The position numbers and the translations under genes were made by a program. From Eledone cirrhosa (lineage: Eukaryota): a stretch of DNA of 64,000 bases. The notes under the pieces are model-generated. The model searched no databases and had not been told where the DNA came from. It saw only the letters and a program-made list of their open reading frames with translations. The stretch is from assembly GCA_964016885.1 (NCBI GenBank), contig OZ024747.1, positions 15,438,001 through 15,502,000 on the forward strand, read 5' to 3'. Positions 7,881 to 21,089 of this stretch are shown here, piece after piece (within the stretch, counting starts at the first letter, position 1; the number at the start of each line of letters is the position of its first letter).

Positions 7881-7952
<72 letters not shown>

Positions 7953-8005
7953 AAATAATAAAAAATAAACCAAAGAAGCCTTCAATACATGAAAAGTCTT
8001 TTTTA

Positions 8006-8043
8006 GCCAACAATGCTTCGTCCTATTGAGGACTCATCAGGGC
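8006..8043 (-). ncRNA. Hammerhead in the inverted pLTR (GAAA mutated to GAAG)
   Basis: Reverse complement reads gcc-CTGATGA-gtcct caat aggac-GAAG-cattg-TT-ggc. Confidence 0.75.
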
Positions 8044-8155
8044 AAGTAAAGCTACAAGAAGCACTATCGGCCAATACAGGCCAAAAACTCAGAATAATAT
8101 GGAGTATACATCTATTAAAGCCCAGGAAAGATATCAAGGAAAAGTAGGCTAAGAT

Positions 8156-9312
8156 ATAATTTTGAGAACGATTTACTTTCCCTTGTCAAAAATATAAAGT
8201 ATAGGCCGTATAATAGATATGGGAACTATAATAAGTTCAACAGGTTCCAGTCTAAACTTAAGAATATCGTTAAGGATTTTAAAGGGAATAAGTCTATTCT
8301 TGTCCCGGCTGACAAGACTAAGAATCTTTACTCTCTGGATTACAATGCTTACCGTAATTTTATCTATAAGGAGCTGCATAAAAATTACAAAAAGACAACG
8401 CAAGATAATTTGGATCATATCAATAATGAGGGTCTCAAGATAGTTTCGGACCTGGGCCTTGATAAGTATACCCAGCCATATTACCCTAGGGAACCGAGAT
8501 TCACTCTTAAGGATCATAAGGTAGACTTCATTAGTAATCCTTCTCTTAGACTCATTAGTCCTTCTAAGTCTGATATAGCTATTATTAGTAAGAAAATCCT
8601 TGACCTGATTATACCAGCCGTTAGAGAAAAGGTCCATTTTAATCTATGGGGGAACACTAAGGATGTTATAGATTGGTTCTCTGGTATTAATAAACTTGAG
8701 TCTAGTAGGTTTATCCAGTTGGATATTGATGCCTATTACACGTCGATTTCACCTATCCTCCTTAATAAAGCCTTAATTATGGCCATGCGAGTGTCTAGCC
8801 TTACACGACCGCAGATTGATGTTATACTAGCAGCCCGTAGGACTATCATCAAATTCGAGGATACACTTTGGACGCGCAAAAACACACCCAACAATTTCGA
8901 CGTTACAATGGGTTCGAGTGATTCGGCCCAGGTTACTGATGTTGTTGGGCTGTTCCTCCTAAATGAACTGTATGTTACCTTTCCGTACCTTAAAGGCGGA
9001 CTTTATCGTGACGATGCATTGTTTCTGATAAACTCTAGCACCAACAACGTTGAGCATAATAGGAAGAAACTTTATAATTTTTTTTTAAATGTTAACCTTT
9101 CGATCACGATTGATAGAAATGATAGAGCGGTCAACTTTTTATATGTGACTTTGGACTTGGTCACTAATAGTTACAAACCCTTCCATAAGCCAAATGAGAT
9201 ACTCTCTTATGTTAATTCCAATTCTAACCACCCCAAATCTATGATTAGCTCTATAATTAACCGTGTATCTAATAGAATTTCCACACTCTCTGAAGGATAT
9301 AGGAATATTTAA
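8156..9312 (+). pseudogene. PLE reverse transcriptase (no start codon; +1 frameshift near 9290)
   Basis: The frame is open upstream of the 8410 ORF (FENDLLSLVKNIKY...VPADKTKNLY...DHINNE). Motifs LRLISPSKSD, FIQLDIDAYYTSI, FDVTMGSSDSAQV, GLYRDDAL, YVNSNSNHP. Confidence 0.92.
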
Positions 9313-10612
9313 TTCACATGCAGAGTACTATAATAATTCCCTAGCTAACTCTGGTTACTCTGGTAAAATACGTTATAATGAGAACAACCTTAGAAAGTCT
9401 CCGTTTACCCATAATAATAATAACTTAATTTCCCATAATATGGCCATGAATGGGAGTAGAAAGCATAAGAATCGTAGAAATCCCATAGGTGTATCCGAAC
9501 CCATCCATAGGTTAAGCTACCGTAATCGTAATAGTGAGTCTAATGGTACACTTTTCGGGATTGGTTCTGGGGAACAAGTTAGGCACTCTGATATCTCACC
9601 CAGTGGTAATGTTTTTACTGATTCTAATAGTGTTGTTTCAACTGATCCTGGAAATAACCCTAATCCTATTGATATGATTCCAGATAACACTAGATATACT
9701 AAAGGTAGAAACAGAAGGAGACTCAATAGGGTTTTGGTCGCTTCTAATAATGTTGTTTCAACTAGTCCTCGTAGTAACCCTGATCCTATTAGTGGGATAC
9801 TGGATAACGGTAGAGTTCGTAAGGATAGAAATAGGAGGAGACTCAATACTTATTTTAACCCGCCTTATGATCATGAAGTGTTAACTAACATCCCTAGGTC
9901 TTTCTTTTCTATCTTAGAGAAAAATTTCCCTCCTACTAATAAATACCATGGTATTTTTAATAAAAATGTAATTAAACTATCATTCTCTACCACCCCTAAT
10001 ATTAGTTCTCATTTAGCTAGCACTAATAATAGGAAAATTAGGGACAGCTACTCCTCTATGCGTTCTACTAGTCTTGATGGATCCATTAATGCCTTACCAC
10101 CTTATAATAACCCTAGAAGTGATGCATCACTTTTTCAGCCGGTAAATAGCACCAGGAAGTGTAACTGTAGAGTAAGAATTAACTGCCCTTTAAATGGTCA
10201 CTGCCTCTCTAGGAACATTGTTTATGCTTGTGAAGTTAAGACTGATTCTTCTAATAGCACATATATAGGCTCCACATCTAATACTTTTAAAACTAGGTTT
10301 AATTCTCATATCTCTAATTTTAAGCATGTTAAGTTTAAGAACTCTACTTCTTTAGCACACCATATCTGGGATCTTAAAGGGGCAGGCATGCCATATAGCC
10401 TTAATTGGCGTATAGTAGCACGCTCTAATAACCTATCAACACACACTAAATTCTGTAATCTCTGTATCCTAGAGACCCACTCTATAATTTTTTCAAGGGA
10501 AGTTTTGCTTAATAGAAAGTCTGAGATATTTTCTCCCTGCCCCCATGCCATTTCTAATTCTTTCTTCTATTATAGACCTAAAAGTTCTGGTAGTTTAAAT
10601 TGTATCCATTAG
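9293..10612 (+). pseudogene. PLE thumb/linker plus GIY-YIG endonuclease (continues the RT after the frameshift)
   Basis: YFNPPY, IKLSFSTTPN, CNCRVRINCPL (CxCx5C), IVY...YIGSTSNTFKTRFNSH, CNLCILE, LNRKSEIFSPCPH. Confidence 0.92.
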
Positions 10613-12178
10613 CTGCTATATTTCCTTATCTTTTTTGTTTAGGATCATTTTGATTAACATCATCTTTATTAATTTTACTACTTTTCGATTTTAGTTTCCA
10701 TAGTCTTTTGGCTACCATACCCTATCTATCGTCTTAAGCATTATTATAGTTTCACTACTAACACCTTATGGGTTTATATCTTATTAAATACTTTGGTTGG
10801 AGTCTCATTCAACTAATGTACCTCCTCCTCTACACACTTAATATCCGTCCCTTCTATTATACTATATATAAATTTCACCTTTATGCTCCTTTTATGATAT
10901 TATATAATATATTGATTTTACTTTTATGCTCCTTCCTATCCTCCATAAACTCTCTTCTTTCTGTTCCCATTGGTCTACCATAGTTCTATTTAGAGTCCTT
11001 TTATTTGATAACGTTATTCGACTGAACGGAGCATATTTTACTCTATTCTTGATAATTTTATTGAAATATCTCAAACTTATACGTTTTTGATGACTTAAAT
11101 TATAGCCAATTTTGATGTGACTAAATATGTATTTTAAATACTTTTAATATTAATTAATTTAAAAACGTTTTCTAGTCAATTCGCCGCTTACATTTCTATC
11201 TCTTCTTTTACTTAACCGCTTGTGACACCTAAGTAAATATACTTGTTTTTGTTTTTCGATCTTCGGTTTATTTTATTTTTTTTTTACTACCACATGCTGT
11301 TCATTAATATATGTCTGTGTATCTCAACCACGTAAATATTTATTAAGCATTTCCTTAGACTCTGTTCGATATTTGATATTAATATTGTTATATCATATCA
11401 TTTTTATGTAATCGTTATTTTATGTAAATGTTATTTGAAGTACTGTTCTGTTATATTTTCTAATATTTTGTGATATTTTGGTAATACTTATGCCAACGTA
11501 AAACGACTTGACCTCCGTGTATTTGTCACAATGATATAGATATTTTTTTCAACACAATTTTTTCAACACTATTTAGTTCTATATGATTTTTTTCTTACCC
11601 TGTATAACCTTGAATTATATATATGATGTAATTTTGTATATCTTTTAATGCCAATATATTATAATATTGTTATTATAATGTTATTATAATGTTTTTATAT
11701 TGTTTATGCACACTGATAGGGAATTATATATTATGTTTTAATTTTTTTTTTATCTTTATTCTTATTTTTATCTTTATTATATTATACTGTAAACAATATA
11801 TATGTATATTTAAATACTTAATAAGTGTTAGTTTGTGTTTGTACTAATATATATATGTATAGATATATATATATACATATATTAAGCTTTTTATTATCAC
11901 CATCTATTATATTATATTATATTCTATATCGTACTGTAATTCTCGCATTATATTACCATTGCTGTTTCAAGTTTTTGCATTATATAATATTTACAATGTG
12001 GGTTCAACATGTTAATCACTTCCTTGCTATTTGGTCTATATCTATGTTTGTAACTGCTTACTCTTAATCTTAGCCTACTTTTCTTTGATAGCTTTCCTGG
12101 GCTTTAATAGATGTATACTCCATATTCTTCTGAGTTTTTGGCTTGTATTGGCCGATAGTGCTTCTTGTAGCTTTACTT

Positions 12179-12216
12179 GTCCTGATGAGTCCTTAATAGG
12201 ACGAAACATTGTTGGC
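12179..12216 (+). ncRNA. Minimal type I hammerhead in the 3' pLTR of element 1
   Basis: gtc-CTGATGA-gtcct taat aggac-GAAA-cattg-TT-ggc, then AATAAA at 12218. Confidence 0.85.
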
Positions 12217-12398
12217 TAATAAAGACTTTTCAAGTATTGAAGGCTTCTTTGGTTTATTTTTTATAATTCTTCGACCTCTGTTTAATTACATTGAGCTATA
12301 TCTTATACTGTCATTTCTATAATATGAAGAGGGTGTTTAACTCCAACACACTCTAGTATTTTAATTCTTATTTTAATTCTTATTTATATATATATATA

Positions 12399-12452
<54 letters not shown>

Positions 12453-12456
<4 letters not shown>

Positions 12457-13691
12457 TATAGACATAGAATATTCGAAAATATTCTGTATGTTTATAATAA
12501 ACATTTTGAAGACCTAATCGCTATAGAATAGAATACGTCACGTATTACAATTAGATTCTCGATAAAAGCAAGGGAAGTAATCTACGCGTTTCATTCTCGT
12601 TAGAAATCATCAGGACTACATATCCAGTGCTTTTATCGAGAATGACACAGCTAGAGACTTATAGAATACTTAGCTGTGTACAGGAACTGGTTTGAAAGAG
12701 CGGTTGCCGGTCCGGCAGAAATTAGAAATTGGAATAAATGCTCTGAAATAGCGATATATATGTGAATATAGACATAGAATATTCGAAAATATTCTGTATG
12801 TTTATAATAAACATTTTGAAGACCTAATCGCTATAGAATAGAATACGTCACGTATTACAATTAGATTCTCGATAAAAGCAAGGGAAGTAATCTACGCGTT
12901 TCATTCTCGTTAGAAATCATCAGGACTACATATCCAGTGCTTTTATCGAGAATGACACAGCTAGAGACTTATAGAATACTTAGCTGTGTACAGGAACTGG
13001 TTTGAAAGAGCGGTTGCCGGTCCGGCAGAAATTAGAAATTGGAATAAATGCTCTGAAATAGCGATATATATGTGAATATAGACATAGAATATTCGAAAAT
13101 ATTCTGTATGTTTATAATGAACATTTTGAAGACCTAATCGCTATAGAATAGAATACGTCACGTATTACAATTAGATTCTCGATAAAAGCAAGGGAAGTAA
13201 TCTACGCGTTTCATTCTCGTTAGAAATCATCAGGACTACATATCCAGTGCTTTTATCGAGAATGACACAGCTAGAGACTTATAGAATACTTAGCTGTGTA
13301 CAGGAACTGGTTTGAAAGAGCGGTTGCCGGTCCGGCAGAAATTAGAAATTGGAATAAATGCTCTGAAATAGCGATATATATGTGAATATAGACATAGAAT
13401 ATTCGAAAATATTCTGTATGTTTATAATAAACATTTTGAAGACCTAATCGCTATAGAATAGAATACGTCACGTATTACAATTAGATTCTCGATAAAAGCA
13501 AGGGAAGTAATCTACGCGTTTCATTCTCGTTAGAAATCATCAGGACTACATATCCAGTGCTTTTATCGAGAATGACACAGCTAGAGACTTATAGAATACT
13601 TAGCTGTGTACAGGAACTGGTTTGAAAGAGCGGTTGCCGGTCCGGCAGAAATTAGAAATTGGAATAAATGCTCTGAAATAGCGATATATAT
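12453..13691 (-). repeat. 310-bp hammerhead tandem array, 4 copies (ribozyme sense on the minus strand)
   Basis: Exact period of 310. Hammerheads at 12577-12619, 12887-12929, 13197-13239 and 13507-13549. Confidence 0.95.
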
Positions 13692-15751
13692 GTAGTCCTG
13701 ATGATTTCTAACGAGAATGAAACGCGTAGATTACTTCCCTTGCTTTTATCGAGAATCTAATTGTAATACGTGACGTATTCTATTCTATAGCGATTAGGTC
13801 TTCAAAATGTTTATTATAAACATACAGAATATTTTCGAATATTCTATGTCTATATTCACATATATATCGCTATTTCAGAGCATTTATTCCAATTTCTAAT
13901 TTCTGCCGGACCGGCAACCGCTCTTTCAAACCAGTTCCTGTACACAGCTAAGTATTCTATAAGTCTCTAGCTGTGTCATTCTCGATAAAAGCACTGGATA
14001 TGTAGTCCTGATGATTTCTAACGAGAATGAAACGCGTAGATTACTTCCCTTGCTTTTGTCGAGAATCTAATTGTAATACGTGACGTATTCTATTCTATAG
14101 CGATTAGGTCTTCAAAATGTTTATTATAAACATACAGAATATTTTCGAATATTCTATGTCTATATTCACATATATATCGCTATTTCAGAGCATTTATTCC
14201 AATTTCTAATTTCTGCCGGACCGGCAACCGCTCTTTCAAACCAGTTCCTGTACACAGCTAAGTATTCTATAAGTCTCTAGCTGTGTCATTCTCGATAAAA
14301 GCACTGGATATGTAGTCCTGATGATTTCTAACGAGAATGAAACGCGTAGATTACTTCCCTTGCTTTTATCGAGAATCTAATTGTAATACGTGACGTATTC
14401 TATTCTATAGCGATTAGGTCTTCAAAATGTTTATTATAAACATACAGAATATTTTCGAATATTCTATGTCTATATTCACATATATATCGCTATTTCAGAG
14501 CATTTATTCCAATTTCTAATTTCTGCCGGACCGGCAACCGCTCTTTCAAACCAGTTCCTGTACACAGCTAAGTATTCTATAAGTCTCTAGCTGTGTCATT
14601 CTCGATAAAAGCACTGGATATGTAGTCCTGATGATTTCTAACGAGAATGAAACGCGTAGATTACTTCCCTTGCTTTTATCGAGAATCTAATTGTAATACG
14701 TGACGTATTCTATTCTATAGCGATTAGGTCTTCAAAATGTTTATTATAAACATACAGAATATTTTCGAATATTCTATGTCTATATTCACATATATATCGC
14801 TATTTCAGAGCATTTATTCCAATTTCTAATTTCTGCCGGACCGGCAACCGCTCTTTCAAACCAGTTCCTGTACACAGCTAAGTATTCTATAAGTCTCTAG
14901 CTGTGTCATTCTCGATAAAAGCACTGGATATGTAGTCCTGATGATTTCTAACGAGAATGAAACGCGTAGATTACTTCCCTTGCTTTTATCGAGAATCTAA
15001 TTGTAATACGTGACGTATTCTATTCTATAGCGATTAGGTCTTCAAAATGTTTATTATAAACATACAGAATATTTTCGAATATTCTATGTCTATATTCACA
15101 TATATATCGCTATTTCAGAGCATTTATTCCAATTTCTAATTTCTGCCGGACCGGCAACCGCTCTTTCAAACCAGTTCCTGTACACAGCTAAGTATTCTAT
15201 AAGTCTCTAGCTGTGTCATTCTCGATAAAAGCACTGGATATGTAGTCCTGATGATTTCTAACGAGAATGAAACGCGTAGATTACTTCCCTTGCTTTTATC
15301 GAGAATCTAATTGTAATACGTGACGTATTCTATTCTATAGCGATTAGGTCTTCAAAATGTTTATTATAAACATACAGAATATTTTCGAATATTCTATGTC
15401 TATATTCACATATATATCGCTATTTCAGAGCATTTATTCCAATTTCTAATTTCTGCCGGACCGGCAACCGCTCTTTCAAACCAGTTCCTGTACACAGCTA
15501 AGTATTCTATAAGTCTCTAGCTGTGTCATTCTCGATAAAAGCACTGGATATGTAGTCCTGATGATTTCTAACGAGAATGAAACGCGTAGATTACTTCCCT
15601 TGCTTTTATCGAGAATCTAATTGTAATACGTGACGTATTCTATTCTATAGCGATTAGGTCTTCAAAATGTTTATTATAAACATACAGAATATTTTCGAAT
15701 ATTCTATGTCTATATTCACATATATATCGCTATTTCAGAGCATTTATTCCA

Positions 15752-15752
<1 letters not shown>
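13691..15752 (+). repeat. 310-bp hammerhead tandem array, ~6.65 copies (ribozyme sense on the plus strand)
   Basis: tgtagtcctgatga recurs at 13691, 14001, 14311, 14621, 14931, 15241 and 15551; reverse complement of the left block. Confidence 0.95.
13692..13734 (+). ncRNA. Minimal type I hammerhead of the 310-bp monomer (first of 7 plus-strand copies)
   Basis: gtagtc-CTGATGA-t-ttct aacg agaa-t-GAAA-CGCG-TA-gattac. Palindromic ACGCGT stem III; predicted cut after A13728. Confidence 0.9.
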
Positions 15753-17962
<2,210 letters not shown>

Positions 17963-21034: not shown

Positions 21035-21089
21035 ATTATACATATTTCAGGGATACCAAATTAAAATATGGTATGCCTTCATCAGACAA
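21035..21089 (-). ncRNA. Degenerate type I hammerhead in a TA-inserted repeat (20985-~21160; terminal fragment also at 46944-46996)
   Basis: Reverse complement reads ttgt-CTGATGA-aggcatacca...tggtatccct-GAAA-tatg-TA. Stem II pairs 9 of 10; stem I is decayed. Confidence 0.65.

Follow-up and report, generated by a model that had tools for sequence, protein, structure and literature searches.

The repeat array examined here most probably (we put the probability at about 0.75) goes back to one retrotransposition event in which a non-coding retrozyme was inserted by the reverse transcriptase (RT)/GIY-YIG enzyme of a Penelope-like element (PLE), acting in trans through programmed twin priming. It lies in a 64,000-nt stretch of Eledone cirrhosa DNA (the window; positions 15438001-15502000 of a contig that is part of a 3.0-Gb assembly). 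The strict pairing of two kinds of outer end, A and B, and a template shared between the two arms point to programmed twin priming. The feature is real and family-wide: a known element, the retrozyme, has been inserted with a known footprint, the PLE inversion and tail.

The array has two arms of a 310-nt unit, for which we set phase 1 at window position 13688. The left arm (A; 12453..13693, minus strand) spans 1,241 nt or 4.00 retrozyme monomers, runs from phase 171 to 171, and carries four hammerheads with cores starting at 13543, 13233, 12923, and 12613 on the same strand; its tandem period is 310 nt with 99% matches, and its single substitution is at 13119. The right arm (B; 13688..15753, plus strand) spans 2,066 nt or 6.66 monomers from phase 1 to phase 206, carries seven plus-strand hammerheads (cores from 13698, one per 310 nt), and has a single substitution, at 14058. 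The arms overlap in a 6-nt microhomology, ATATGT (13688..13693), that joins their RNA-sense 5′ ends (phases 171/1); overlaps of at least 6 nt arise in 0.36% of random joints of the window monomer. There is one polarity switch, and RNA-sense 3′ ends lie at both outer ends, at site A on the left (12453, minus strand, phase 171) and at site B on the right (15753, plus strand, phase 206). The 35 nt between the two sites (phases 172-206; 15719..15753, plus strand) form a “tail” that is present at one outer end only. A (TA)n target tract adjoins the array on the left (12381..12453), and a (TA)n-rich tract adjoins it on the right (15752..17960), broken by an unrelated inverted-repeat element at ∼16785-17240.

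The first-pass annotation of this DNA had described the inversion, which is present in the assembly as described and turned out to be the usual layout of the retrozyme family. Its single switch through a 6-nt ATATGT overlap was borne out, with the arms sharing exactly 13688-13693, but the overlap does not end one base before stem I as proposed: it reaches two bases into the stem I strand GTAGTC (13692-13697). The outer ends had been placed at 12453 and 15752, and both are indeed RNA 3′ ends abutting (TA)n; only the right coordinate needed amending, to 15753, a position ambiguous with the TA tract. The ends fall at different phases, as had been noted, and those phases are fixed, 35 nt apart, across the genome. 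What had been missed is that every array pairs two fixed sites, with an end of one kind on one side and an end of the other kind on the other, and that this constitutes the PLE “tail,” which points to the enzyme class.

TA tracts in this region gather nested insertions, with three two-armed elements between window positions 7950 and 17240. The third of these inverted-repeat elements, at ∼16785-17240 within the right tract, has a left arm reaching ∼55 nt past the mirror of its right end, in the manner of a tail. Many TTCA interruptions resembling the site-A junction also occur in the right tract (15800-17960), and they reflect either compound-microsatellite slippage or abortive starts.

The array unit is a 310-nt type I hammerhead retrozyme without a long terminal repeat (LTR); a conserved 20-mer of the monomer has 19,436 exact matches genome-wide, and the hammerhead pattern has 4,033 exact copies. 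By motif reading, with stems I and II also appearing in folds, the first type I hammerhead of the B arm occupies 13692..13734 (plus strand). Its stem I GTAGTC (13692-13697) pairs with GATTAC (13729-13734), its core consists of CTGATGA and GAAA, stem II is TTCT/AGAA under a U-U mismatch, and stem III is short and palindromic (ACGCGT); the cut is predicted from the sequence between 13728 and 13729, at phase 41/42. The same motif reading recovered core and stems in all 11 monomer copies of the array; an Rfam scan of the window returned no model at its gathering score, hammerhead included. With a G+C content of ∼0.35 and no open reading frame (ORF) of at least 80 aa inside the array, the monomer yields an RNA folding at -69.7 kcal/mol (z, -4.18; 0 of 100 shuffles equally good). 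The unit has the sequence-level properties of metazoan non-LTR retrozymes, namely, a hammerhead per unit, a length within 150-450 bp, G+C below 50%, no coding capacity, no LTR, and a strongly self-paired RNA. Because the array lacks an RT/GIY-YIG ORF, it is a passenger and not an autonomous PLE.

Family-level variation falls mostly within the hammerhead (phases 7-44), at phases 7, 8, 15, 18, 25, 26, and 43, and one-base insertions occur among the arrays at phase 44, adjoining the predicted cut site. Another abundant short element with a hammerhead-like core and ends in TA tracts was seen at window position 21085 (minus strand) and at L199:6700-6800. In addition, 20 public sequencing runs (18 organism codes, 17 studies), with no RNA run listed among them, contain 65-100% of the monomer's words. 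Assembly of X1 and of X2 produced a single contig of 340 nt in each case (310 plus 30), which closes into a loop in the graph, and two Hi-C runs with the organism code of X1 (X23 and X24) yielded no reads; none of these four runs covers the window junction. Relatives, contamination, or a mobile circle may each lie behind these matches.

We sampled arrays from the genome, examining ∼90 of an estimated ∼2,000; the latter figure follows from a mean array length of ∼10 monomers, and all polarity counts below rest on these samples. Two lists were drawn up without regard to ends or polarity: the first 100 listed hammerhead-pattern matches, which gave 10 arrays on C1, and the first 100 listed 20-mer matches, which gave 13, for 19 arrays together. 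A wider sample was built from TA-abutting ends of both kinds (667 and 722 on the reverse strand, the forward counts being inflated by overlapping matches) and included all sites listed on C1 as far as 115 Mb, whether or not they were paired, and those of type A as far as 142 Mb. It requires one canonical end and leaves the other end and the polarity free, so that arrays with two A or two B ends would be caught. With the window array, it comprises 88 arrays. One duplicate (L056.1, of L056.0) was left out of the junction statistics (74 arrays), and L096 was also left out of the length statistics (73 arrays); a 23-nt extra piece in L110 was ignored, and a local duplication at the junction of L041 was collapsed. 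A search for one rarer haplotype gave no match.

Two-armed arrays with RNA 3′ ends facing outward account for 75 of 88 (85%), the remaining 13 are single-armed, and none is convergent; in the end-blind sample, 18 of 19 arrays run minus then plus, 1 is single-armed, and none runs plus then minus. The earlier argument that unequal crossing-over cannot explain the inversion thus holds, and the tabulation of further arrays that the first-pass annotation proposed gave fixed end phases as well. Site A lies at phase 162-180, with modes at 171 and 180 that differ solely by how the monomer's ATATATAT merges with the TA tract, and site B lies at phase 196-213 with a mode at 206, ∼35 nt away. Among the 74 two-armed arrays with both ends readable (one end of the 75th is beyond the fetched stretch), 42 are AB, 32 are BA, and none is AA or BB. 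All 18 divergent arrays of the end-blind sample, its two extra arrays among them, are A/B, an outcome with a probability of 2^-18 if the ends were independent at even odds.

These arrays also carry a PLE-type footprint: an inverted, 5′-truncated copy with 3′ ends outward, a tail of 30-40 bp at one end, and a (TA)n target. Of the 75 two-armed arrays, 70 have (TA)n no more than 25 nt away on either side, and flanks are TA-rich in 9 of 9 two-armed arrays of the hammerhead-pattern end-blind set; where both flanks are (TA)n (70/75), a target-site duplication is unreadable. Divergent polarity in 75 of 88 arrays with no convergent case, together with (TA)n on both sides in those 70, supports the initial suggestion that cDNA synthesis was primed from each end of a cut TA tract. 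The 13 single-armed arrays count against twin priming. Two of them, L062 (287 nt) and L115 (272 nt), run from site A to site B and so fall slightly short of a full turn, as though the second primer had halted copying on a circle; this applies to only 2 of the 13.

A sister retrozyme family has a 311-nt unit that is identical to the window monomer at 218 of 331 aligned columns (66%), with 4,544 matches of one 20-mer. It shares the A and B sites and the 35-nt tail of the main family, and of 10 loci, 7 are A/B, none is AA or BB, and 3 were not callable. This family is older, with differing hammerhead stems II and III (L033:4372-4720, L206-L215, and L199:6840-6975).

To compare the arms as templates, we compared the outermost 4,000 nt of each. 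Of the 60 arrays whose two arms both include a full monomer, 56 have the same majority haplotype in both, against a 14% rate of identity between arrays. The four discordant arrays comprise two with single changes in one-copy arms (L059 and L099) and two mosaics (L093 and L066). In L093, the haplotype switch is equidistant from the outer ends in both arms, despite arm lengths of 925 and 5,473 nt, and L082 and L101 each have one singleton mirrored at equal distance from the outer ends. Rare variants thus mirror one another when positions are measured from the outer ends, not when they are measured from the junction, the pattern expected if two cDNAs had begun next to each other on a single RNA. 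In L066, the arms differ in haplotype across the four outer monomers of the B arm, and this array contradicts the one-template pattern. Of the sporadic variants in doubly covered stretches, 58 are not mirrored and 2 are (four arrays, examined singly, stand outside this count); the unmirrored ones are expected for RT errors or later mutation, yet they lend no support to one template.

The inner ends of the arms are truncated at scattered phases and joined by overlaps of 1-8 nt or by short inserts. Among 74 junctions, 58 are blunt or overlapping, with a mean overlap of 2.45 nt versus 0.76 nt for random joints, in agreement with the earlier claim that the cDNAs were joined via microhomology. Overlaps of at least 2 nt number 36 (10.6 expected), and those of at least 6 nt number 4 (0.2 expected). 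Inserts of 1-23 nt, and one of 272 nt, occupy the other 16; the longest, in L051, is a G+C-rich foreign stretch captured between the arms. The 74 junctions show 73 different phase pairs, the arm 5′ ends are mildly nonuniform in phase (Kuiper P = 0.008), and the difference in phase between the two sides of a junction is uniformly distributed (Kuiper P = 0.87).

The first-pass annotation had drawn attention to the site just 5′ of the ribozyme. No special role of this site is supported across the family: 10 of 148 arm 5′ ends fall in phases 301-10, where 9.55 are expected, or 8.7 under a microhomology-matched null. The self-cleavage site itself was considered and rejected as a preferred position for arm 5′ ends (2 of 148 versus 5.25 expected). 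As neither site is enriched, the place of the window junction next to the ribozyme is best read as chance. Two other candidate regularities were discarded, namely, the exact 4.00-monomer left arm (6 of 65 versus 3.1 expected) and an apparent cluster in the first ten arrays that faded in the larger set (window scans, P = 0.23-0.54). The hammerhead body (phases 19-53) looks depleted of arm 5′ ends (3 versus 16 expected), a post hoc observation with a scan P value of 0.003 for 35-nt windows and of 0.14 and 0.26 for 25- and 45-nt windows.

In the mechanism we propose, a PLE enzyme, probably a dimer, would bind one RNA at the tail and cut both strands of a (TA)n tract. Each target 3′-OH would then prime at one site, A or B, with B lying 35 nt further 3′; at site A, the AUAUAUAU of the template itself (phases 173-180) would assist priming. 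The same upstream RNA would serve as template for both cDNAs, with the leading cDNA displaced by the one that trails it. End-joining would follow, through annealing of the 3′ ends of the two cDNAs and fill-in.

Other routes to an inverted array were weighed against the same observations. One, proposed for PLE inverted repeats (passages of PMC3846280), is self-priming fold-back, in which a single cDNA folds back and is copied into a hairpin that an endonuclease resolves, leaving the tail. Such a process would also yield one-haplotype arms anchored at the outer ends, and it finds some echo in L114, which joins at the monomer's own 16-nt inverted repeat, in L087, which joins at equal phases, and in the many small Hydra-2 copies (see below) that are near-perfect palindromes. 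A fold-back copy, however, cannot exceed its template in length or add 35 nt, yet the untailed A arm is not shorter in 34 of 73 arrays. The uniform phase difference across the junction also speaks against it, and first-strand errors should all be mirrored, whereas 58 of the 60 sporadic variants lack a mirror counterpart. Fold-back of a single cDNA, whether real or artifactual, is unlikely, mainly because the tailed B arm is the longer one in only 39 of 73 arrays.

The two arms might instead stem from two independent insertions or separate RNA molecules at one TA tract, or from later recombinational inversion. TA tracts do gather nested insertions, as the three two-armed elements between window positions 7950 and 17240 attest, the arms of L066 are discordant, and two RNAs of the same haplotype could come from a single expressed source locus. 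This account, however, predicts about half AA or BB arrays and some convergent pairs, and we observed 0 of 74 and 0 of 88, respectively; moreover, no TA tract was found at the junctions, and singletons are mirrored between the arms in L082 and L101. We regard it as very unlikely.

L1-type twin priming by a LINE enzyme is more doubtful still. An inversion with a microhomology joint is the textbook L1 outcome, and LINE-type RT fragments are present in this genome. Against this, the arrays lack a poly(A) or any other sequence for priming at the 3′ terminus, the two starts are fixed, the arms are copies of one and the same upstream stretch of RNA and not of adjacent parts of it, inversion is the majority outcome, and the tail length matches that of PLEs. 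The least credible alternative is an artifact of fold-back chimeric reads or tandem-repeat misassembly: although the junctions are known from the assembly alone and some long arms have scattered indels, 74 junctions with 73 phase pairs are always divergent and always A/B, the flanking DNA shows no mirroring, the variants are mirrored relative to the outer ends and not the junction, and either arm may be longer. Junctions and footprints alike are known from the assembly.

Programmed twin priming in trans calls for a partner, and autonomous PLEs are present in this genome. A Hydra-type PLE (Hydra-1) lies beside the array at 7951..12390 (plus strand), with RT and GIY-YIG regions, frameshifted near 9260-9310; we take it as context and a candidate partner at most. 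Its layout is two-armed like that of the array, with an inverted repeat (7951-8155 versus 12067-12271, 94.6%), its own hammerheads, one short and one long end, and DKT and CxCx5C motifs, which passages of PMC8557442 give as marks of Hydra elements; its Pfam match to GIY-YIG is weak (E = 0.001, below the cutoff). A first search gave 24,587 candidate places in the genome, and in 14 regions plus the window, all 7 copies with both ends seen have one short and one long end, ∼100 nt apart. Its tail of ∼100 nt (window 7951-12390 and L148-L161) exceeds the published 30-40 bp, and at several Hydra-1 ends the final 9-12 nt recur as short repeats, resembling telomerase-style repeated starts. As a partner, the neighboring Hydra-1 was rejected, given no significant sequence match to the retrozyme and a tail of ∼100 nt instead of 35 nt.

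A second Hydra-type family, Hydra-2, includes many copies at 98% identity and an open 758-aa frame. Its hammerhead core matches that of the retrozyme at 25-26 of 28 nt, and its copies end 60 or 128 nt after the core, giving a 68-nt tail. Comparison of the retrozyme with both families revealed no shared start region and no 35-nt tail, only the hammerhead core in common with Hydra-2. Both autonomous families nevertheless have two end sites each. Among the first 100 listed Hydra-2 matches are eight minus/plus pairs whose cores lie only 4-17 nt apart (on C1, e.g., L168/L169), so that the joint of these tiny palindromic copies is immediately 5′ of the core; many small copies are near-perfect palindromes. 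A junction next to the ribozyme, as described in the first-pass annotation, may hold for Hydra-2, though not for the retrozyme.

Regarding the template, we lean slightly toward a monomeric circle that is usually copied round and round, rather than always a linear multimer. Eleven variants were each found in one sampled array only, where all copies in the two arms nevertheless carry them (a private-variant listing gave 13, two of which also occur in single arms of other arrays). They fit a one-monomer bottleneck, as a circle would impose; they could also come from unsampled parent arrays, ∼90 of roughly 2,000 having been examined. An extra polarity switch occurs in only 1 of 75 arrays, where it is a local duplication, indicating that parent junctions are not inherited, and the absence of a 5′-end pileup at the cleavage site (2 of 148, 5.25 expected), where RT does not stop, counts for a circle. 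Arrays L082, L093, and L101, on the other hand, need multimeric templates. Long arms were rejected as proof of rolling-circle copying: L105 (45 monomers) underwent higher-order duplication after insertion, so arm length says little about the template. The scattered indels in some long arms may be assembly errors.

More tentatively, and at a little under even odds, programmed twin priming may be the normal PLE insertion route, with a dimer using two fixed sites on one RNA and making one cDNA per target strand. The RNA would usually be a ribozyme-made monomeric circle, and each array would directly document in the genome that a circular RNA of an animal had undergone double rolling-circle reverse transcription. 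If so, the inverted repeat and the one-sided tail of PLEs would be explained together.

L1 offers a mechanistic parallel outside PLEs. There, first priming occurs at the poly(A), second priming is opportunistic and upstream, adjacent RNA stretches are copied, and inversions are a minority. In the twin priming that Ostertag and Kazazian reportedly put forward for L1 in 2001, both target ends prime cDNA, and the cDNAs join by microhomology to give an inversion. Retrozyme starts, unlike those of L1, are fixed 35 nt apart, the same upstream RNA is present in both arms, and inversion is usual.

Retrozymes, PLE inversions, and PLE tails have all been published; what we did not find in print is their linkage, as seen in this family. 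Animal retrozymes were defined by Cervera and de la Peña (2020; PMC7229834), who proposed PLE mobilization and tandem cDNA from circular RNA, and Li, Clavereau, and Pollet (2026; bioRxiv 10.64898/2026.07.22.740005) proposed PLEs as mobilizers from co-distribution and pLTR similarity, leaving the mechanism open. The present family resembles the metazoan non-LTR retrozymes in these texts in its short tandem unit, one type I hammerhead per unit, low G+C, lack of an ORF, self-paired RNA, and co-occurrence with PLEs. It differs from the head-to-tail arrays they describe in that 85% of arrays are two-armed with fixed, paired ends. The available text of PMC7229834 contains no occurrence of “inverted” or “orientation,” and that of 10.64898/2026.07.22.740005 contains none of “orientation,” “microhomolog,” or “palindrom.” Among the open-access main texts that our searches covered, we found no description of two-armed retrozyme arrays or of the one-of-each end rule; closed journals, supplementary files, and the older literature on Penelope may contain one. 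The retrozyme mobilizer has so far been argued from co-occurrence and pLTR similarity, and the arrays here carry the mechanical footprint of a PLE. They also bear on annotation, as tandem-repeat pipelines count each two-armed insertion as two unrelated arrays.

MRC1 and other Chlamys PLEs are described, in passages of PMC8557442 and PMC9940879, as non-autonomous passengers with multicopy insertions arranged head-to-tail and a 3′ end resembling that of the autonomous partner. Like MRC1, the retrozyme is probably a non-autonomous PLE passenger with multicopy units; unlike MRC1, it has a hammerhead, none being reported in those passages for the Chlamys clade, and comparison with Hydra-1 and Hydra-2 found no partner-like 3′ end.

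Endonuclease-positive (EN+) PLEs are described in sections of PMC8557442 and PMC3846280 as having an inverted 5′ copy, a 30-40-bp tail often at one end, and (TA)n targets. The retrozyme arrays share their head-to-head inversion, one-ended tail, microsatellite target, 5′ truncation, and microhomology joints, and they differ in lacking an RT/EN gene and in having arms that are multimers of a small unit. The same sections call the tail optional or often one-ended and ascribe it to endonuclease resolution and the inversion to self-priming; they do not state a strict one-of-each end rule with same-template evidence, and PMC8557442 calls the making of inverted repeats and tails undefined. A young family of ∼2,000 insertions with marked haplotypes, in which the rule is strict (one A, one B, same template), separates twin priming from self-priming.

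In the relevant part of Frangieh et al. (2024; PMC11167929), PAc (Poseidon from Anolis), predicted to be a dimer, cuts and extends both target strands in vitro at an AT-rich target, with reverse transcription starting at two adjacent internal sites that bound the tail. It showed no start-site difference between strands and no need for ribozyme cleavage, observations that count against the twin priming proposed here. The PAc RNA is also linear and coding, unlike that of the retrozyme, and its two starts are not linked to one inverted insertion in that account. The retrozyme family supplies a defined RNA, start sites, and target for reconstitution, and it has in common with PAc the extension of both target strands, the AT-rich target, and two adjacent start sites that bound the tail.
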